From contig CP104013.1 of NCBI GenBank assembly GCA_025839675.1, positions 930,001 to 962,000 on the forward strand: a stretch of DNA of 32,000 nucleotides, given 5' to 3'. A program made the translations under genes and the position numbers. The notes under the pieces were generated by a model. It made no database searches. It was given only the letters and a program-made list of their open reading frames with translations, and had not been told where the DNA came from. Below are positions 1,541-14,205 of this stretch, piece after piece (position 1 is the stretch's first letter; every line of letters starts with the position of its first letter). This DNA comes from Candidatus Lokiarchaeum ossiferum (GTDB lineage Archaea; Asgardarchaeota; Lokiarchaeia; Sigyniarchaeales; Promethearchaeaceae).

Positions 1541-2446
1541 TTGCATTTGTTGAAAAACGTAACCATCATTGGAGAGAAAAAATCTGTTTATTCCAAGGAT
1601 ATAGCATTCTCTTTTATAACTCCAGATTTTCTCTCAAATTTCATGATTAACATAAATGAAGAAATGACAGCCCGGAAGTATTTCAATCAAGAAACCGTTT
1701 TAGATTTACTTTCAGTTAAGATCATCTGCTATAAAATTTTGGAACCTTTTCCTTTATTCTTTGCCTTAACGTACGATGATTCTATTGTCCCAGAGAAATT
1801 TTATCCAACATTACATTCTGTGATAGAAAAGACCTTGGATTTCTTAAAAGATAAGAAACCCGAAATTTTACAAAAAGAACCAACAGTTTTTAAAAAGCCC
1901 TTTGAGAAACTTGTCGATTTTGCTATGGAAAATAGACCCCCAAAGATATCAATATTGGGATACAATGGTGTTGGCAAAACATCGATCTGTAATTACATTG
2001 AAGGAATAAAGCCTGAAAAGTTATTACCAACAATGAATATTGAACGACATTCATTTCGATTATTCAATATTCCAATAATACTATGGGATTTTTCAGATGA
2101 AATCCCAGAAAACATGGTCCAAAAGTTTCTTTTAGGTTCTGATGCGGTTATAATTGTTCTTGATTCAACCAAAAAAAATGCTAAAGACAGTTTACATCTT
2201 TTAAATTTGACAAAAAAGACCGTCCCACATGCTGAATTAATTATTGTCGGGAATAAACAAGATCAAAAAAAGGCGGAATCAATTGAGAAATTAGAAAAGC
2301 TAATGAATCACCGAATTATACCGTTTAATGCAACAAATTTTGCTAATGCGCGATTAATTCAGGAACAAACCGCTGAATTATTAGAAATATGTTGTGAAGA
2401 ATTAGATTATACTGACGAAAGCTATGTAGTGCAACGAAACGATTAA
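1541..2446 (+). CDS. small Ras/Arf-like GTPase with a roughly 130-aa N-terminal longin/roadblock-like extension
   Basis: The C-terminal half carries G1 GYNGVGKT (about 1958-1981), a candidate G2 Thr in LLPTMN, G4 NKQD (about 2252-2263) and an atypical G3 LWDFSDE (2081-2101). The N-terminal half has a beta-beta-alpha-beta-beta-beta-alpha-like residue pattern. In-frame TGA lies at 1538-1540, so the start must be TTG 1541/1547/1550 or ATG 1643; the start is uncertain. A T8 tract follows the stop. Confidence 0.8.
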   Translation: MHLLKNVTIIGEKKSVYSKDIAFSFITPDFLSNFMININEEMTARKYFNQETVLDLLSVKIICYKILEPFPLFFALTYDDSIVPEKFYPTLHSVIEKTLDFLKDKKPEILQKEPTVFKKPFEKLVDFAMENRPPKISILGYNGVGKTSICNYIEGIKPEKLLPTMNIERHSFRLFNIPIILWDFSDEIPENMVQKFLLGSDAVIIVLDSTKKNAKDSLHLLNLTKKTVPHAELIIVGNKQDQKKAESIEKLEKLMNHRIIPFNATNFANARLIQEQTAELLEICCEELDYTDESYVVQRND

Positions 2447-5317: not shown

Positions 5318-6391
5318 ATGCAAAAATTAATTCTTGTTAATTGGGATATGCAACTTGGACCTCGAACCTTAGTTCAATTTCCTCCCGAAGAAAATTTCCC
5401 ACCAAAAGAAGTTCTCTTAAAAATTTGGGCCCAACATGAAATTAATCCTAAAAAATACTTTATTTCCTATTATGATAACGAGCAGGATAAGTATTATTGC
5501 TCCTATTTAAAGAAACAAATTAGAACCATTAAGACCTATTTCATTGTGTTAGAACTGTCTCCAGAAGATGATGAGCGAATTTTTCAAGAGATCTTGGACA
5601 ACATTGCGGAAGATTTAATTAACAAGATTGATCATCCTCATTTTAACCACGTATTGTCTGAAACATATCGAATTGTTAAAACCTATTCTGATCTTGACCA
5701 AGAACAATTATTTTTAAGATTATTTGAGGATAAAGTGAGATCGGACATTTTTTCAATATTAAGAAATGGGGTTCTCACGAAAAAGCAATTGAAATCTAAG
5801 TTAGAAGATTTATATGGTTACTCTGATTTGAATGTAGATCTTCTCTTAACTCCCTTCATACGATTAGGATTAATTCAAATAAATAATATCCCCGGTTCTC
5901 CAGATTCCCTTTTCTTGGTAAATGATGTTTATTCTTGTTTCTTACCTCCAAAAGAAAAACCTAATACAGATATAATTCGAGATGTAATAACTCAACGGTA
6001 TATGTCACCTAAGATCATTCCAAATGAAGATTTACAACCCCTAATGCATTTATATCAAGAACCAGGAGTTAAAGAACTCATTTCATTATTGAATGAAGAT
6101 ATTCACAACGGTATGCCTTATGAAATCGCACTCACGGTTTTAAAGAATAAAGAAGACACAATTGAACAATTGGAAAAGCACAATATTGTTTTTGTTCACA
6201 ATAAGAAAAGAATTTATCTCATAAGTCAATTGAATTTCATTAAATTCGTACCGACATATTTAATCTCAATTCTAGCTAAAAGATATCAAAAAAGTGAAAT
6301 ATCTTTAGATCAATTAGTTCAACAATTGGATTACATAAAATTAACAGATATGGAAAACACTTTGGGAGCAAATTGGAACCGGATCTATTAG
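5318..6391 (+). CDS. hypothetical protein: N-terminal longin-like domain plus two winged-helix-like segments (NPRL2/FLCN-type architecture suspected)
   Basis: ATG is preceded by GGAG at about -13. The N-terminus LILVNWDMQLGPRTLVQFPPEENF fits the 'strand - GP - strand - P' signature of FLCN/NPRL2/DENN-type longin domains, followed by a beta-beta-alpha-beta-beta-beta-alpha pattern. Later segments (IFSILRNGVLTKKQLKSKL...FIRLGLIQI; YEIALTVLKNKEDTIEQLEKHNIVFV) look like wHTH units. Function is not established. Confidence 0.7.
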   Translation: MQKLILVNWDMQLGPRTLVQFPPEENFPPKEVLLKIWAQHEINPKKYFISYYDNEQDKYYCSYLKKQIRTIKTYFIVLELSPEDDERIFQEILDNIAEDLINKIDHPHFNHVLSETYRIVKTYSDLDQEQLFLRLFEDKVRSDIFSILRNGVLTKKQLKSKLEDLYGYSDLNVDLLLTPFIRLGLIQINNIPGSPDSLFLVNDVYSCFLPPKEKPNTDIIRDVITQRYMSPKIIPNEDLQPLMHLYQEPGVKELISLLNEDIHNGMPYEIALTVLKNKEDTIEQLEKHNIVFVHNKKRIYLISQLNFIKFVPTYLISILAKRYQKSEISLDQLVQQLDYIKLTDMENTLGANWNRIY

Positions 6392-6549: not shown

Positions 6550-8067
6550 ATGGATATTTATCGGTCGTTTGTAGAGAATTTTCATGGAATTGCATTTAGA
6601 AGATTACTAAATGACAAAATCGTTCTTTTCGAAGGTATGGTTAAAGAAATTTCTGGTTATGATAAAGAAGAATTCATGAATAAAAAAATTACGTGGAAAA
6701 AACTAATGCATCCAGATGATCTAGAAAGATTATCCGAAAATATCCATAGATTACATGTAATTAGAAATTATTCTACAGAACGCGAATATAGGATCAAAAC
6801 TAAAAATGGAAAAATGAAATGGATTCATGAGAATTTGCGTAGAATTGATGAAAAAAACCAAATATATATTGAAGGAACTATTGTAGATATCTCAAAAATG
6901 AAAAATGCGGAACTTCAATTACGAGAGAGTGAAGTAAAGAGAAGCGAAGAGCAAATGCAAAAAGAAAAATTGGAATCGATAGCCCTTTTGGCGGGTGGTA
7001 TTGCCCATGACTTCAATAATATCTTAACTTCCGTATTAGGAAATTTAGAATTAATGCAGATGGAATCTTTAGAGGGCGAAACCCAATTACTCCTAACTGA
7101 AACATTGCAAGCAACTCATAGAGCCACAAATCTTACACAACAACTTTTAACTTTTTCAAAAGGGAAAAAACCAATAAAAAAAACAGAGTCCATAATCCAA
7201 ATCTTAGATGAAGCATCCTCTTTTGTTCTTCGAGGCTCAAATTGCAAAACTCAATGTATTTTTGAAGATTTAATCCCTCCCATTAATGTAGATGCAAATC
7301 AAATTTTACAAGTCATTAATAACTTGTTAATCAATGCAAAACAAGCCATGGAAAAAGGAGGTATTATAACAATAAGCTGCTCAACAATAGATATTAATCG
7401 GATTGATACAATTCCCCTTCCTTTTGGTAAATATCTTAAAATTGCAATTAAAGATACTGGAAAAGGCATTCCAAAGGAAATTCAATCAAAAATCTTTCAA
7501 CCTTATTTTACTACAAAATCTAGAGGATCTGGTTTAGGGCTTGCAACGAGCTACTCGGTGATAAAAAACCACAATGGTCACATTAACTTTCAATCAACAA
7601 AAGGAGTTGGGACAGTTTTTAACATATTTTTGCCTGTCTGGGATGAAGCTTTTGTGATAGAAGAAAAACGTAATGAAAATTCTATACTTCCTGAGAATAT
7701 GAAAGTACTTGTAATGGATGATGATAAAGCCATTCATCGGATGTTGTCACGAATTTTTAAGCGCTACAAATATCGGATGGATTCAACTTATGCTGGGGAA
7801 GAAGCAATAGAATTATATAACCAAGCTCTTCTAGAAAACACTCCTTATGATCTGGTAATAATGGATTTAACTATTCCAGCAGGTCTCGGAGGTGAAGCCA
7901 CTGCAGGAGAAATTCTTAGAATTAATCCCGATGCGAAAATGATTGTTTCTAGTGGTTATTCAAACAATGAAATTTTAGCAAATTATAAAAAATATGGATT
8001 CCAAGCAATTCTAAAAAAACCCTACACAGTTGAAGATTTGCGAAAAGTTATAAACATAATAAGTTGA
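6550..8067 (+). CDS. hybrid sensor histidine kinase (PAS - HisKA - HATPase_c - receiver), no TM segment
   Basis: PAS-like N-terminus (YRIKTKNGKMKWIHENL...EGTIVDISKMK), coiled linker, H-box GGIAHDFNNILTSVLGNLEL, N-box NNLLINAKQAM, G1 IKDTGKGIP, F-box FQPYFTTK and G2 GSGLGLATSY. The C-terminal REC domain shows VLVMDDD...DLVIMDLTIP...KKP. Confidence 0.9.
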   Translation: MDIYRSFVENFHGIAFRRLLNDKIVLFEGMVKEISGYDKEEFMNKKITWKKLMHPDDLERLSENIHRLHVIRNYSTEREYRIKTKNGKMKWIHENLRRIDEKNQIYIEGTIVDISKMKNAELQLRESEVKRSEEQMQKEKLESIALLAGGIAHDFNNILTSVLGNLELMQMESLEGETQLLLTETLQATHRATNLTQQLLTFSKGKKPIKKTESIIQILDEASSFVLRGSNCKTQCIFEDLIPPINVDANQILQVINNLLINAKQAMEKGGIITISCSTIDINRIDTIPLPFGKYLKIAIKDTGKGIPKEIQSKIFQPYFTTKSRGSGLGLATSYSVIKNHNGHINFQSTKGVGTVFNIFLPVWDEAFVIEEKRNENSILPENMKVLVMDDDKAIHRMLSRIFKRYKYRMDSTYAGEEAIELYNQALLENTPYDLVIMDLTIPAGLGGEATAGEILRINPDAKMIVSSGYSNNEILANYKKYGFQAILKKPYTVEDLRKVINIIS

Positions 8068-8118: not shown

Positions 8119-11100
8119 TCAAATTAGATTAATCCGTGCATAGGAAAGAAAATTAGCATTAATCAGCAATTTACGATGCTTTTTTAATCGTTTTAGTTGT
8201 TGGGGTACATCAAATTCCAGATTTTCCAAAATTTGCGACCATCTTTCAATTTCATTCTCATAATATTGAACTTCTTTCTCAACCCGCATAAATTGTTTAA
8301 TACGTCGCTTTTTACGGACAGGATCACTAAGTTGATCTAGATTCTGTCGCTGTCGTTCAGTCGGAAGTTTAAGTTTTTTAGCTCTTAAGGCATTTTCGGT
8401 CAGTTTCATTTGGGTTTCTGCAAATTTTTTCTTAAAATTGGCATTTTTTAGCACTCTCATCTTTTGGGAGAGGTATTTTTCTTTATTCAATTTAATCAAT
8501 CTTTGTGCTTTTTCAGAGATCTGATTTTTTGTTGATTGTTTTGCACTTTCCAAGCACCTTTCCAATTTTTCACGAGATATGGATAAGTGTGCTAGATCCA
8601 AAGAAGGAGCATTAAATTGTAATATCTTTGCAAAATTATGAGGTTTAGAAATAAATCGTCCCAAAATAGGTAAAAGTTCCAAATCATCTGTTATAAAGAT
8701 GGGAATAACACTTTTTTCAATAATAACCCCAAGAAATTCAATTTCGAATAAGAATAAATTTAATCCAACTTCGAACCGTAGCAGACGTTTGAAAATATCC
8801 AATTCATCTTTGGGAATCCGGCTCCCATAAGGATAAATAAATAATGAGGCCCATTGTTTTATATCAATTGTCAGCTGGCATGAATTTCCACCAAAATCAC
8901 TTTTTTGAGACCAATCAATTAAATTCATAACCAATGGATGACCTAATGAAAAGAAGTCAAATTCTTCTTGTTTCCGAGCCAAATCAATATCAAAAACGCC
9001 TTCATATCTCCGATGTGGAATACGAAGAGTTCGACGTAAAGCTTCTGAAAATTTAATGAGCCAAACTCCTATATCATGAGGTTTTTGAACAAGATTCAAA
9101 TCCATCTGAAACTCAGGATATTGAATTCGAAAATTGGGATCATTTGTCACGTATCGGACAAAGATATCTAAAAAAATGTGAATATCAATCCCCGTTAAGA
9201 GTTCTTTCTTGGAAAGATCCCGTGAGATATAATCATATTGAAATGATCTTTTATCTAAAATGAGATCTTCTAATTTATCATATACTTCATCAATTTTATT
9301 ACTGGTTTTGGAGATCACTTCATCTAATCTAAATTTCATTGGTGATTCATCTTCCTTTAAAACCAGAGAAGTTATTTGTCCTTCTAAACTCCCCAAAATA
9401 GGCTCTAATGCGCCAATAGACTCTTCGAAGAGATGAATACGTTCTGAAATTGCAGTGATAATGGAAGATTCGACAGTATCTTTGATATAAAAATTAAAAA
9501 TGAGAATATCTTTTGTTTGCCCAAAACGATCTAATCTTCCAATTCGTTGTTCCAATCTCATAGGATTCCAAGGTAAATCATAATTTACAATGATATGACA
9601 GAATTGGAAATTTCTCCCTTCCCCACCAATTTCAGTAGAAAGCAAAATCGGTATATCATGTCGAAAAGAAGAAACTGAAGCCATTTTTTGAGATTCAGTT
9701 AAATCTCCATGAAATGGAGCAACTTTTATCCCTTCTTTTTCAATTAAATCTTGAAGATAAAATAGTGTTTTTTTAAATTGGGTAAAAATAATGAATTTTT
9801 CTTTAGGATCCGTTTTTATAACTGATTTTACTATCTCAAGCAATCGTGAAGCTTTGGAATCATAGTCTAAAGATTCCAAATCTTGTACAAATTCCTTAAG
9901 AATTCGTATATGTTCATTGATATCTAAAGAAGGTCCTTTCTTCTTAGGGATCATTTTTCTTTTCCTTGCTTGAATAACCATCCGATCTTCTACATCCAAT
10001 TCATCTAGTCCCCAAGCGAGATCCATGCTAGATTCGTCTTCAGTAAATTCTCGTTGAGCTTCTTGTTCCATCCCAAGTTTTAAAAGTGTCTCTTTATTTT
10101 CTTCCAAATACAAAATTCTTTTTTTTAAACTTTTTAAAATCGCCGGAACCGAACTAGTCAAGAGTTTCTGTAAAATAACCATAACAAAACCCATCCCCGA
10201 GGGTCCCGTTTCGTAATTTTGAGAATAAATTTTGGCGAGATATAGATGAATTTTGTTATATACCTCTAATTCATCTTTAGTGAGATCTACATCAATTATT
10301 TGAGGGATTCTCTTAATAGGATTATCAGGAAAAACAACTCTTCTCCTATTTCGGATGACATACCGGCTTAAGAAATGTCTTTTCTCCAATTTTGCAATAA
10401 TTTCTCTCCGAAAAGATTCAAAACGTAGTTTTTCATTTAATTCCGTTTCTGTGATCTTTATATGGAAGGATTGAATTTGATAAACCAATGCATCTCGTTC
10501 ATAGGAATTAATACTCGTGAAAAGTTGCAGATTTTTTACAACCAAATTAAGTAAAGAAATTTTCTTCCGTTCTGCTTCAAAGGAATCAAAATTAGGAAAT
10601 TCATAGGGGTTTAAAAGTTGGATCAAGGAAAATAAGTCAAAGGAATGCAATTGGATGGGAGTAGCAGTCAATAATAATAAACTTCGTGTTTTTGCAGACA
10701 AATTTTGTGCCAACTCATAAGCCAAGGTTGTTCGGTATTGTTCAGTTTTTTGATTGGCGAGATATCTTCGAAGATGATGTGCTTCATCAAAAATTACAAT
10801 ATCCCACTCAATACGTGTTAACAACTTGGCACATTGTGGTAGTCGCGCGTATTGTAATGTTACAGTACATAAGGTCAAATCTTGGCCAGTTTGGGAATTA
10901 AAAAAATTACCAGATTGATAGTTGATCTTCAAGTTTTTTACAATTTTTGATTTCAATCGAGTAAATTTTATATTAAATTTGTTTTCCAATTCAAACTCCC
11001 ATTGACCTACAATAGAAGCGGGAGTGATAATCAGTACACGCGTAGCCAAATTTCGTGCAATCATTTCTTTGACATAGATCCCTGCTTCAATAGTTTTTCC

Positions 11101-11862
11101 CAAACCAACTTCATCAGCTAAAATGTATCGGGCTTGACCAATATCCAATAAATGATGTGCAACAGCGATCTGGTGTGGAAGCAGAGAAAGACGTGAATGA
11201 GTAATAATTTTCAAGAGATTGCTTGTATAGAGTGAATATATTTGAGCACCCCAGTACCGTAACAAAAATTGATATGTTCCATCTTGATTTCCCTTTAAAA
11301 ATTCGTTCAATGGGGATTCAAGCTCACTAATAATATCTATTTCGGCAACAGTTTTTTTTGTTCCATCAGGGAGTAATAATGTATAATGGATTAAACCTGT
11401 GGGATGCGCTAAATTTCGACCAATTATAACACCAATTCCATCTTTAAAGCGAATTTCTTTATCCAGATCCCAAAGAAAATGAGAAATATCTTCTCTAAAG
11501 AGAGGTTTTTCTAAAAAAGCTGTAAATTCTACCAAAAATTGGTTGAATTTCTTTTTATCAATTAAAGAAAGAAGATCTTTATCGGAATTTCCTTCAAAAG
11601 ATATAATTTTATTAGATTTTTTATGAGATTGGGCATGGAAAAGAGTTGGATTCGATTCATTAGTAGATTTTGCTTTTATTGGAATAATATCAGTAATTCT
11701 ACCAATACCAAGTTCGGTTCGCTGTGGACAATGCACTCTGTTGCCTACAATAAAGACATGACTTCTGCAATCTTTATTAGAACACCTTTCTACCTTAAGT
11801 CCATAGGTTTTTGCTAACGGTGAATGACAATAGGGACACACATTGAAATTAGATTTGATCAA
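8119..11862 (-). CDS. SNF2-family (RapA/HepA-like) ATPase with N-terminal zinc ribbon and long C-terminal extension
   Basis: Motif I ILADEVGLGKTIEAG (encoded about 11081-11125), motif II FDEAHHLR, LLLTATPIQ, and helicase-C motifs LLSTEIGGEGRNFQ...NYDLPWNPMRLEQRIGRLDRFGQ. The N-terminus has CPYC...CSNKDC...HCPQ. About 430 aa follow the helicase core and end in a Lys/Arg-rich coiled coil. The only possible start that includes the zinc ribbon is TTG 11862-11860. Confidence 0.9.
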   Translation of the reverse strand: MIKSNFNVCPYCHSPLAKTYGLKVERCSNKDCRSHVFIVGNRVHCPQRTELGIGRITDIIPIKAKSTNESNPTLFHAQSHKKSNKIISFEGNSDKDLLSLIDKKKFNQFLVEFTAFLEKPLFREDISHFLWDLDKEIRFKDGIGVIIGRNLAHPTGLIHYTLLLPDGTKKTVAEIDIISELESPLNEFLKGNQDGTYQFLLRYWGAQIYSLYTSNLLKIITHSRLSLLPHQIAVAHHLLDIGQARYILADEVGLGKTIEAGIYVKEMIARNLATRVLIITPASIVGQWEFELENKFNIKFTRLKSKIVKNLKINYQSGNFFNSQTGQDLTLCTVTLQYARLPQCAKLLTRIEWDIVIFDEAHHLRRYLANQKTEQYRTTLAYELAQNLSAKTRSLLLLTATPIQLHSFDLFSLIQLLNPYEFPNFDSFEAERKKISLLNLVVKNLQLFTSINSYERDALVYQIQSFHIKITETELNEKLRFESFRREIIAKLEKRHFLSRYVIRNRRRVVFPDNPIKRIPQIIDVDLTKDELEVYNKIHLYLAKIYSQNYETGPSGMGFVMVILQKLLTSSVPAILKSLKKRILYLEENKETLLKLGMEQEAQREFTEDESSMDLAWGLDELDVEDRMVIQARKRKMIPKKKGPSLDINEHIRILKEFVQDLESLDYDSKASRLLEIVKSVIKTDPKEKFIIFTQFKKTLFYLQDLIEKEGIKVAPFHGDLTESQKMASVSSFRHDIPILLSTEIGGEGRNFQFCHIIVNYDLPWNPMRLEQRIGRLDRFGQTKDILIFNFYIKDTVESSIITAISERIHLFEESIGALEPILGSLEGQITSLVLKEDESPMKFRLDEVISKTSNKIDEVYDKLEDLILDKRSFQYDYISRDLSKKELLTGIDIHIFLDIFVRYVTNDPNFRIQYPEFQMDLNLVQKPHDIGVWLIKFSEALRRTLRIPHRRYEGVFDIDLARKQEEFDFFSLGHPLVMNLIDWSQKSDFGGNSCQLTIDIKQWASLFIYPYGSRIPKDELDIFKRLLRFEVGLNLFLFEIEFLGVIIEKSVIPIFITDDLELLPILGRFISKPHNFAKILQFNAPSLDLAHLSISREKLERCLESAKQSTKNQISEKAQRLIKLNKEKYLSQKMRVLKNANFKKKFAETQMKLTENALRAKKLKLPTERQRQNLDQLSDPVRKKRRIKQFMRVEKEVQYYENEIERWSQILENLEFDVPQQLKRLKKHRKLLINANFLSYARINLI

Positions 11863-11943: not shown

Positions 11944-14205
11944 TTATTCATTTGATTGCCAAAGATCATATTCTTTGAAAATATCATCAATTTGATTGAT
12001 AGCACGATTTATTTTCCTTGCAACCCGCTTATCAAAAGTTTCATTTATAATATCTTGCAGTTTCAAGCCGTACTCATCAGTAATTTCCATAAGATTCATA
12101 AGATCATTACGCGAAATTCCTTCTTTCATCACAGCAATAACAATTTCATCCAATTTCTGTTTTAAAAGTTCTGTATTAGATCGAGATTTTTGAGAATTTA
12201 CTAATAACTGGGAAATACGGAGTTGAAGTGCTTTTTCTTCGTCACTTAATTTTTTAGCCCCTTCTTCTATCAACCTGTCGGAAGCTAAGCGAACAACTCG
12301 ATTATAGATTTCAATCGATTTTTCCAATATTTGACTACACTCAATGGGATTATAAAATCTACGCAACCGAGCTTCACATACTTTTAGATAAGCACTATCG
12401 TATAAAATTTCGATATTTCCAAAATCACTTTCTTCCCACAAAGCATCGATTTTCATAAATAATTCTTGCAATTGGGCATAAGGGGCACTAGTTGTTATTT
12501 TTCCAAGATCTTCTTGAAATTCTACCGATTTATTCAATAATTTTTGAGCCCTTTTTTCTACTACCAATAAATTTTTTTGATGTGCCTTAGCCATAATCCA
12601 AATAAATTTATTTACCGCCCGATCGATAAGTTTTTCTGCTTTTTTAGGCTTTAATACTAAAATATCTTTCGCATCTTGAATAAGCTGAACACCATCATCA
12701 AGTGCGAGTTCTACTTCAAAAAAGAAATCAAAAAACGTGATTTGAGCACGTTCTCGGAGAATAAGATCTTTATCATAGCTATCCTTAACCACACTTTTCA
12801 TAGAGATATACCAAAAAATGGCAGAGGGAATCCAGAAAAGAATACCCATGTATAACATATTTTTATAGGAGCCTAAAAGCTGTAACAACCCAGCAGCAAT
12901 CAATAAAGTTATACTTTTTCCAATCTGCTCGGTTAATTGAAAAAATGAAGTCGCAGTCCCTCGATGTTCAGGCAAATTCACATCAATCATCACCGCATTT
13001 TTGTTTGTAACCATACCTGCAGAAAAAAATGTTCCAAAGAAGGAAAATATCAGATAGGTAATATATTTCGGATAAGTAGTAAATATGGCTTTCATTGTTT
13101 CAAACATGAAAAAAACTTGATCTTCAGGAGCAATTGATTCTGGATATGTGATACCAAGTTGTGTTAGGGACACAGGTTCAAGTTGAAAAATCATTAAAAA
13201 TACTAGTGGAATGGCAATAACATTGGTGATAAATGCAAGTAATGCTCTATATTGCCGCTTTTTTTTATATACAATATCCCCCAGCCAGGATAACACGATG
13301 CTACCCAACATATATCCAGCACTCGTCATTCCAGCCATGATTGTTGATACCTGAGTGCGAATATCTCCAGGAAGTTCTCGAAACATACCTTCTGTGGAAT
13401 GGGAAAAGGTCATAATTAAAGAAAAAATGATAATAGTTCCTGGTACAATCGAAAAAAACCCATTTATGATTAAAGCTTTATTCGTCCGTTTATGAAGCAA
13501 GTTAAAAAGTTCTTTCTGATTGATTTTATATCCATATTCCATCTCCTCAAATTCATTAACCCTTGATAAACTTTCTTCTTTGGATCCCATTGCAGGAAGT
13601 TTTACAAAGAAAAGCATAATAGTAATGATAATTGCAAGAATTGTTAGAATTAAAAAGGGAAATTGCCACCCATATTGTAATAATCCAAGAGAGACAAATA
13701 TATTAAGAGGACCCAAAAATGCAGACAAAAATTGACCCAAACCATTACTAATCGCAGAAAATATTGCTAAGAACCCAAATAAACCCGCACGTTCTTCTGA
13801 AGGAATTATATCACTTAAAACTGAATAAGCCACAGGTAATGCAAAACCTAAACCCGCTCCAGTTAAAATTCGTGCAAACAATAACTGAAGAAAATTTTGA
13901 CAAAATGCAGTTCCAATAAAACCTATAACGGCTAAAAAGGCACCCCCAATAATAATTTTATTTCTATCAATTCGATCTGTGTAGTATCCCCATAAAATCA
14001 TGATGAAAGCTGAGATTAAAACCGATAAAGAATCAGGCAAGTAAATCAAAGAATTTTTTATTCCAAAATCTTCAATAATCGGTGAATAAGAAGGAATAAG
14101 TACATTTAATGAACTAGTATATAATAATAAAAGTAATAAAACCAGTATTATGACATTTAACTCATTTTTGGAATATTTTTCACGCAGCGGAGTCATTTTT
14201 TTCAT
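11944..14205 (-). CDS. MFS transporter fused to a roughly 280-aa C-terminal soluble alpha-helical domain
   Basis: The N-terminal roughly 470 aa are polytopic, with MFS motif A (GYYTDRIDRNK) between early TM segments. Residues about 471-753 (DNA about 11947-12795) are hydrophilic, helix-prone and K/E/L/Q-rich, with no TM segment. ATG at 14205 (alternative ATG at 14196). Confidence 0.85.
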   Translation of the reverse strand: MKKMTPLREKYSKNELNVIILVLLLLLLYTSSLNVLIPSYSPIIEDFGIKNSLIYLPDSLSVLISAFIMILWGYYTDRIDRNKIIIGGAFLAVIGFIGTAFCQNFLQLLFARILTGAGLGFALPVAYSVLSDIIPSEERAGLFGFLAIFSAISNGLGQFLSAFLGPLNIFVSLGLLQYGWQFPFLILTILAIIITIMLFFVKLPAMGSKEESLSRVNEFEEMEYGYKINQKELFNLLHKRTNKALIINGFFSIVPGTIIIFSLIMTFSHSTEGMFRELPGDIRTQVSTIMAGMTSAGYMLGSIVLSWLGDIVYKKKRQYRALLAFITNVIAIPLVFLMIFQLEPVSLTQLGITYPESIAPEDQVFFMFETMKAIFTTYPKYITYLIFSFFGTFFSAGMVTNKNAVMIDVNLPEHRGTATSFFQLTEQIGKSITLLIAAGLLQLLGSYKNMLYMGILFWIPSAIFWYISMKSVVKDSYDKDLILRERAQITFFDFFFEVELALDDGVQLIQDAKDILVLKPKKAEKLIDRAVNKFIWIMAKAHQKNLLVVEKRAQKLLNKSVEFQEDLGKITTSAPYAQLQELFMKIDALWEESDFGNIEILYDSAYLKVCEARLRRFYNPIECSQILEKSIEIYNRVVRLASDRLIEEGAKKLSDEEKALQLRISQLLVNSQKSRSNTELLKQKLDEIVIAVMKEGISRNDLMNLMEITDEYGLKLQDIINETFDKRVARKINRAINQIDDIFKEYDLWQSNE

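Follow-up and report, generated by a model that had tools for sequence, protein, structure and literature searches.

The gene and its product

We analysed a 32,000-nucleotide stretch of the genome of Candidatus Lokiarchaeum ossiferum (assembly GCA_025839675.1, contig CP104013.1, positions 930,001 to 962,000 of the forward strand; hereafter, the window), in which the gene at 1547..2446 encodes a small protein with a predicted longin domain followed by an Arf-like GTPase domain. In its G3 motif, at the start of switch II, both the Gly and the catalytic Gln of the canonical DxxGQ are replaced by acidic residues (WDFSDE), and the Asp at the Gly position recurs in most members of its family. The features of the gene are listed below; amino-acid numbers of the motifs follow the 299-aa protein.

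1547..2446, forward strand: whole gene, longin plus Arf-like GTPase, 299 aa plus stop (open reading frame listing, NCBI model, homologue alignment)
1547..1852, forward strand: longin-like core, aa 1-102 (AlphaFold2 model of the domain alone, Foldseek)
1859..1927, forward strand: helix α3/linker leading into β1 of the G domain, aa 105-127 (AlphaFold2 helices 107-110 and 112-127)
1937..2386, forward strand: Arf-like small GTPase domain, aa 131-280 (Pfam, PDB sequence search, Foldseek)
1958..1981, forward strand: G1/P-loop GYNGVGKT, aa 138-145 (motif search; Gly, Gly and Lys invariant across the family)
2030..2032, forward strand: putative G2 switch-I Thr, T162 in LLPTMN (aligns to the 'PT' of Arf/Arl switch I)
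2084..2101, forward strand: G3 and start of switch II, W180-D181-F-S-D184-E185 (alignment to FDLGGQ/WDLGGQ)
2252..2263, forward strand: G4 NKQD, aa 236-239, guanine specificity (motif search; invariant in 34 aligned sequences)
2327..2335, forward strand: G5-like N-A-T, aa 261-263 (Ala invariant in the family and its sister group)
2423..2443, forward strand: C-terminal tail YVVQRND-COOH (family alignments)

An open reading frame is present at 1541..2446 on the forward strand of this AT-rich window (G+C content of about 29-37%) and encodes 301 aa if read from its first TTG. Its product was 99% identical to a 299-aa NCBI protein with the N-terminus MLKNV, annotated as 'Rab family GTPase [Candidatus Lokiarchaeum ossiferum]'. 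Since all 33 aligned homologues begin with MLKN, two distant orthologues start with ATG-CTT-AAA, and the NCBI model counts 299 aa, translation most likely begins at the TTG at 1547, with a predicted leader that is very short or absent; the TTG at 1541, two codons upstream, is probably untranslated. The initial annotation, made from the window sequence alone, had proposed that the first two β-strands fall inside the gene only if it begins with a TTG. This held, with the position shifted to 1547, two codons inside 1541.

A further orthologue has an annotated GTG start, yet reads TTG-TTA-AAA at the homologous position. In a 79%-identical relative (L005), LHLLKNVTIIGEKK is kept in frame without an ATG, and the frame upstream of the called internal ATG reads LHLLKNVTIIGEKKSIFSKDIAFSF, where ATG is likewise absent. 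This orthologue (L005 942-1745 / L006 279-1082) was called 34 residues short, from the internal ATG. Automatic annotation systematically truncates the TTG-using members of the family, because only TTG codons precede the conserved N-terminus.

Remodelling of the G3 motif

In HMMER alignments to the Asgard protein GerdArfR1 (8oun/8oum) and to yeast Arl1, WDFSDE fell exactly over FDLGGQ/WDLGGQ. D181 thus corresponds to the canonical Walker-B Asp, D184 replaces the Gly of DxxG, and E185 replaces the catalytic Gln. In the AlphaFold2 (AF2) model, the first Asp of the motif was located at the end of strand β3, and a D..G regular expression run over the whole protein gave zero matches, so DxxG is absent. 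Because the alignment, the position in the model and the absence of any other DxxG all agree, G3 was not misaligned, and the substitution described in the initial annotation is genuine.

The residue at the Gly position was Asp in 34 of the 40 family members, the others carrying Ile (2), Gly (2), Leu (1) or Val (1). The Walker-B Asp was retained in 39 of the 40. At the Gln position, Gln was found in 20 members, Glu in 10 and another residue in 10. The earlier statement that both Gly and Gln are lost therefore applies to the clade of this protein and not to the family, half of which keeps the Gln (WDIPDQ clade). Codons around G3 varied synonymously among loci (TCA/TCC/TCT/TCG, GAT/GAC and CCT/CCC).

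Outside the family, a search with the G-domain profile yielded 64 nearest relatives whose N-terminal extension measures 105 aa or more, and 60 of these carry (W/F)DFAGQ. The family was monophyletic in 99 of 100 bootstraps of a neighbour-joining tree, with the two Gly-keeping members, P0037 (WDFAGE) and P0039 (WDFYGD), branching basally. Since Asp occupies the position in 34 of the 40 members, the basal members have Gly, and 60 of the 64 outgroup sequences have (W/F)DFAGQ, the exchange of Gly for Asp is derived, clade-wide and selected. The most economical course of events would begin with loss or change of the catalytic Gln; the Gly would then have given way to Asp, which was kept by selection, and a small clade would later have shifted to Ile/Leu at the Gly position. 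P0036, with Val, and this Ile/Leu clade suggest that the Gly was lost more than once.

The G domain and its nucleotide-binding motifs

The Pfam family Arf (PF00025) matched residues 129-259 (301-aa numbering) and scored 44.8 bits, well over its gathering cutoff of 22.3 (E = 1.2e-11); the next Pfam matches were Roc and Ras, and Gtr1_RagA (PF04670) was not among the matches. In NCBIfam, the generic small_GTP domain alone was matched, under its cutoff. The best PDB sequence matches of the G domain were GerdArfR1 (8oun/8oum) and yeast Arl1. In the full-length AF2 model, the predicted local distance difference test (pLDDT) score was 74.5 overall and mostly 85-95 in the G domain. A Foldseek search with this model returned Arl1, GerdArfR1, Arl8, Arl3 and Arl13B, with target-based TM-scores (TMt) of 0.7-0.8.

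The nucleotide-binding motifs were compared between the family and its sister group, a set of ~282-aa Asgard proteins described below. The switch-I Thr was nearly invariant in both. The Gly, Gly and Lys of G1 and the N, Q and D of NKQD were invariant in both and the Lys of NKQD nearly so, the sole deviation within the family being NMQD in P0039. In G1, the window protein has G-Y-N, while most of the family has G-(Y/F)-D (consensus GYDFVGKS).

A 2025 paper (PMC11914678) lists three Arf-specific features, namely Leu-Asp at G1 positions 2-3, a Gly at the third position of G3, and an amphipathic helix at the N-terminus. Both the Leu at G1 position 2 and the Gly at G3 position 3 (Ser or Pro instead) were absent. 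An N-terminal amphipathic helix was also lacking in the AF2 model, where a 127-aa longin domain takes its place. By these criteria, the G domain is Arf-like and not a true Arf.

Predicted fold of the N-terminal domain

About 130 residues precede β1 of the G domain, as initially annotated. A Foldseek search with the full-length model gave G-domain matches only, and the N-terminal domain was therefore modelled and searched separately, from 23 sequences. The AF2 model of the N-terminal 127 residues alone had a pLDDT of 84.9, a predicted TM-score (pTM) of 0.81 and the topology ββαβββαα, with β1 at 2-8, β2 at 13-18, α1 at 28-42, β3 at 49-54, β4 at 57-64, β5 at 70-77 and α2 at 82-101. The final helix α3, which forms the linker, corresponds to 114-131 of the full-length model and sits where true Arfs carry their N-terminal amphipathic helix.

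In the definition of Levine et al. 2013 (PMC3747258), a longin has the order ββαβββαα and a roadblock the order αββαβββα; the longin fold is a five-stranded meander packed between a single helix and a pair of helices on opposite faces. Because the modelled order ββαβββαα fits this definition, the N-terminal domain is, according to the model, a longin rather than a roadblock. In a Foldseek search of the PDB, the top 50 matches were all longin/roadblock proteins (E from 1e-3 to 2e-2). Query-based TM-scores (TMq) were 0.67 for AP2 sigma, 0.63 for zeta-COP, and 0.52 for both the Ykt6 longin and SRX; other matches included a GATOR1 NPRL chain, LAMTOR, AP mu N-terminal domains, TRAPP Bet5/Trs23/synbindin and MglB.

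The longin/roadblock-like fold that had been proposed from the residue pattern was thus recovered as an ordered domain and not as a disordered or non-longin region. The segments then named coincide with β1-β2, α1, β4-β5 and α2, whereas β3 (ETVLDL) had been overlooked. The family signatures within the longin core are C61-Y-K and L-T-Y-D77-D78-S79.

At the sequence level, a Pfam search of the domain at E <= 10 gave nothing relevant, and its profile gave spurious weak matches only against PDB sequences. When the same profile was searched against 1.84 billion representatives, 11 clusters at 50% identity were obtained, all belonging to this family and with full-length members of about 300 aa. In these searches, the longin domain is a sequence orphan.

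The family and its C-terminal tail

The 33 full-length homologues share an identical architecture. The labels of the metagenome-assembled genomes (MAGs) in the family are almost all Promethearchaeota/Lokiarchaeota, with Hel-/Hodarchaeota in a few cases. The full-length reading frames are intact, with a mean column identity of 53-64% across the family. By sequence, these proteins form a small two-domain 'LG' (longin-GTPase) subfamily, almost confined to Lokiarchaeia/Promethearchaeota.

The motif (Y/F)(I/V)(I/V)(Q/N)RND was nearly invariant and terminal in almost all members, and was absent from the sister group. Residues 281-300 had a pLDDT of about 77-79 in the full-length model, which suggests a docked tail and not a free one. 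The DxxD switch II, the orphan longin and this -IQRND tail together define a subfamily not described before, although the longin–Arf-like architecture itself is already known in Lokiarchaeia.

Some variants were observed. P0037, the basal member with a canonical DFAG (JGI metagenome, 322 aa), has a 23-aa basic extension, APHEIRKKSMTWGKK, after -IQRND, and is the single member in which this motif is not at the C-terminus. Two relatives with 68-76% identity (L007 2172-2888 and L008 599-1300) begin ~77 residues late, so that most of the longin sheet is missing, and no upstream frame codes for it. Both also exhibit a 12-aa linker insertion. Natural truncation, decay of the copies or faulty assembly could each account for them.

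Genomic neighbourhood

The gene is preceded by a carbamoyl-phosphate synthase large-subunit gene (its C-terminal part) and followed by a pair of genes for an ATP-binding cassette (ABC) ATPase and a 12-transmembrane (12-TM) permease, then a 357-aa orphan and a hybrid histidine kinase. The more distal neighbours in the window are:

5318-6391, forward strand: 357-aa protein without a Pfam or NCBIfam family (14 homologues)
6550-8067: hybrid PAS-HisKA-HATPase-receiver kinase, four genes downstream of the GTPase
8119-11862, reverse strand: SNF2-family helicase, 1247 aa, with a weak RapA_C-like C-terminal match
11944-14205, reverse strand: major facilitator superfamily (MFS) transporter, 753 aa, adjoining the SNF2 helicase

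We inspected six neighbourhoods of family members for operon context. The gene order of the window recurred only in the 79%-identical relative (L005/L006), while the distant orthologues L001, L003, L004 and L007 lie in four unrelated neighbourhoods. With synteny limited to this close relative, no pathway can be inferred, and the GTPase looks like a stand-alone gene.

The 14 homologues of the 357-aa protein all come from Lokiarchaeia-type genomes or metagenomes, including P. syntrophicum (DSAG12_03114). Its gene is consistently flanked by the ABC ATPase and 12TM_1 permease and, on the opposite side, by the large SNF2 helicase and MFS transporter. P. syntrophicum MKD1 has the block conserved (ABC/12TM/340-aa/SNF2/MFS) with no such GTPase adjoining. 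Because the block occurs without the GTPase, and the neighbourhoods of the GTPase differ, the suggestion that the 5318-6391 product is a partner is unsupported.

Other observations concern the neighbours themselves. The order of the SNF2 and MFS pair is the same in P. syntrophicum and in another Lokiarchaeial MAG. In P. syntrophicum MKD1 (CP042905.2), a 524-aa RVT_1 gene is present on the opposite strand between 12TM_1 and the orthologue of the 357-aa gene (L016 5273-6847); it breaks up a block that is otherwise conserved, and may be a group II intron-type insertion or another retroelement. Directly downstream of one GTPase orthologue, a PAS/HATPase_c sensor kinase was found (L001 9026-10537). 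A link between this kinase and the hybrid kinase of the window was rejected: identity is 28% over the catalytic core, the architectures differ, and the resemblance in position is probably coincidence.

Proposed function and alternative explanations

We consider it reasonably probable that this longin plus Arf-like protein binds guanine nucleotide without classical on/off switching, and that it probably acts as a platform through its longin domain. The subfamily would descend from widespread Asgard proteins of ~282 aa, composed of an N-extension and a GTPase domain with WDFAGQ, with G3 then remodelled to DxxD(E/Q). Mg-guanine nucleotide would still be bound, given how strongly G1, NKQD, G5, the Walker-B Asp and the switch-I Thr are constrained. 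In switches of the Ras superfamily, the γ-phosphate is coupled to switch II through the flexible main chain at the DxxG Gly. The exchange of Gly for Asp, together with the loss of Gln in the clade of this protein, would mean that switch II does not rearrange in the classical way and that intrinsic hydrolysis is very low, or else that the mechanism is non-canonical, possibly with the help of a partner. The classical sensing and hydrolysis of the γ-phosphate through the Gly amide and the Gln would not be usable, making this an atypical GTPase, as in the RGK proteins. It could be locked in one nucleotide state, or hydrolyse by a non-canonical route or with a partner; a pseudo-GTPase and a GTPase with a residue supplied in trans, both raised in the initial annotation, are plausible.

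As the Asp is selected and not merely tolerated, an active role near the γ-phosphate/Mg site is suggested, where the conserved carboxylate may tune the preference for one nucleotide state. The longin domain most likely forms a dimer that joins and presents two G domains, much as the roadblocks of Rag/Gtr do. This is proposed by analogy with all characterised longin/roadblock platforms (LD/RD pairs, that is, pairs of longin and roadblock domains, generally form GTPase platforms; Levine et al. 2013, PMC3747258) and with the dimers predicted for related fusions (Tran et al. 2024, PMC10933270). The -IQRND tail may be a docking element, either in cis or for a partner.

Several points weigh against this proposal. 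The E-values of the longin matches in Foldseek are modest (1e-3 to 2e-2), and the N-terminal domain has no sequence-level tie to known longin families in Pfam or among PDB sequences. Its alignment to the N-terminal domain of the sister group with hhalign is colinear and weak (E = 0.002, probability 14%). The full-length AF2 model has a moderate pLDDT of 74.5 and low scores for the N-terminal strands, so the placement in it of the two domains and of the tail is tentative. Moreover, the inspected neighbourhoods offer no conserved gene neighbour pointing to a pathway, and nucleotide binding, hydrolysis and oligomeric state are all inferred. Finally, the Asp is conserved and not freely variable, which argues for a positive role, possibly in catalysis or Mg binding, and not for simple loss; hydrolysis may also persist, because the largest clade keeps the catalytic Gln (WDIPDQ).

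A different explanation is that of a fully active GTPase and genuine switch, in which the conserved Asp, with the adjoining Gln/Glu, positions the attacking water or a second cation. It is consistent with the selection of Asp at a position that is not drifting (34 of the 40 members), with the Gln retained beside it in 20 of the 40, and with the intact switch-I Thr, P-loop and NKQD. However, six of the 40 members carry Ile, Leu, Val or Gly, which are incapable of carboxylate chemistry; no literature precedent was found for a catalytic residue at the DxxG Gly, and the RGK proteins, with an acidic residue there, have a non-canonical switch. We regard this explanation as rather unlikely. Far less probable is a GTPase that works with its neighbours in the window, with the 5318-6391 product giving a catalytic residue in trans or the ABC transporter as its target. 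The order GTPase/ABC_tran/12TM_1/357-aa/hybrid histidine kinase is indeed the same in the window and in the 79%-identical L005/L006, but the more distant members (L001, L003, L004 and L007) lie in four unrelated settings, the block of P. syntrophicum MKD1 is conserved without the GTPase beside it, and the 357-aa family has no Pfam domain resembling those of GTPase-activating proteins, its sole match being RasGAP_C at a sub-threshold E = 0.08. The missing conservation of synteny largely refutes this explanation.

An artefact, whether through misalignment of the motif, faulty sequencing or decay into a pseudogene, has a negligible probability. Some erosion does occur in the family, as L007 and L008 lack their first ~77 residues. 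Nevertheless, the motif recurs in independent assemblies (34 of the 40 proteins), it lies at the end of β3 as expected with no alternative DxxG, and full-length reading frames are intact with 53-64% mean column identity, so that the artefact reading of G3 is refuted.

A more speculative variant of nucleotide binding without classical switching, which we consider improbable, is that D184 is a built-in γ-phosphate/Mg ligand that fixes switch II whatever the nucleotide, and that the protein is a constitutive, nucleotide-stabilised scaffold controlled by docking of -IQRND onto the longin domain. If true, it would be an archaeal single-polypeptide analogue of the SRX-SRbeta or TRAPP-Rab pairs, regulated by engagement of the tail and not by nucleotide exchange.

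Asgard archaea exhibit large expansions of small GTPases and of longin/roadblock domains, which are building blocks of the regulation of eukaryotic membrane traffic. On the reading that we favour, binding of nucleotide without classical switching, a longin-fused Arf-like lineage of Lokiarchaeia would have taken the path of eukaryotic atypical or pseudo-GTPases, keeping nucleotide binding while the γ-phosphate sensor was rewritten. This opens no new category, but provides a clean natural experiment on switch II. Because the protein is small and enrichment cultures of Ca. L. ossiferum exist, both the switching of a DxxD motif and the effect of the longin domain are directly testable.

Comparison with known systems

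The genome of Ca. L. ossiferum is reported to be rich in Arf-like GTPases, Gtr1/RagA GTPases and longin domains (PMC9834061). Fusions of this kind have been published for Lokiarchaeia in 2016 and in 2024-25, and the architecture is thus less novel than the initial annotation implied. Klinger et al. 2016, as quoted by Dey et al. 2016 (PMC4917890), found five longin domains fused to lokiarchaeal Arf-like GTPases. In the passages of Tran et al. 2024 (PMC10933270) on such fusions, 26 of the 74 small GTPases of MKD1 are combined with roadblock or longin domains, and the fusions are described as Rag-like but close to Arf, with predicted dimerisation through the longin/roadblock domains. The text of a 2025 paper (PMC11914678) likewise includes longin N-termini among Asgard Arfs. 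The protein described here belongs to the Asgard LG class of Tran et al. 2024, in which a single polypeptide carries a longin-like domain followed by an Arf/Rag-like G domain; like the members of that class, it is a Lokiarchaeia protein of about 280-300 aa. An MKD1 LGX paralogue in Suppl. Fig. 6b of that study also has a non-Gly G3, LWDFTI in text obtained by optical character recognition, and stands without comment in the passages on these fusions (PMC10933270).

The nearest relatives of the G domain are Asgard 'ADP-ribosylation factor-like' proteins of ~282 aa with an N-extension of ~117 aa, found in Prometh-, Hermod-, Odin-, Hod- and Thorarchaeota MAGs. This sister group shares the motifs RP.KIS..G..GVGKT, GSD.V..V.DST and ANKQD with the family. 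In contrast, it has a canonical (W/F)DFAGQ G3, a VAID-type G5 and no -IQRND tail, and its N-terminal domains are barely detectable as related to the one described here.

The Rag/Gtr GTPases also consist of a small G domain covalently linked to a domain of the longin/roadblock superfamily, which in Rag/Gtr dimerises as a platform. In Rag, however, the G domain is N-terminal and the roadblock C-terminal, whereas the order here is the inverse, with the longin N-terminal and the G domain C-terminal, as had been pointed out initially. Moreover, Rag has a roadblock of the order αββαβββα, as opposed to the modelled longin ββαβββαα, and keeps DxxGQ.

The RGK proteins (Rad, Gem and Rem) resemble the family in having an acidic residue at the Gly position of G3 (DxWE) with the nucleotide-binding motifs kept, and their DxWE is regarded as departing from the canonical switch (PMC4081519). 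They differ in belonging to an unrelated metazoan branch of the Ras family, without a longin and with other extensions and partners, so the likeness is convergent. Our literature search returned no paper tying Asgard GTPases to pseudo-GTPases.

The closest overall resemblance of the G domain is to the Arf/Arl/SRbeta group, which provided the best Pfam, PDB-sequence and Foldseek matches. Common to both are the Trp before the Walker-B Asp and NKQD, as well as an Asp at P-loop position 3 in the family consensus. Unlike in this group, a longin replaces the amphipathic helix, and G3 lacks the Gly and, in the window protein, also the Gln. SRbeta binds a longin domain, SRX, and SRX (1nrj) was among the Foldseek matches of the N-terminal domain.

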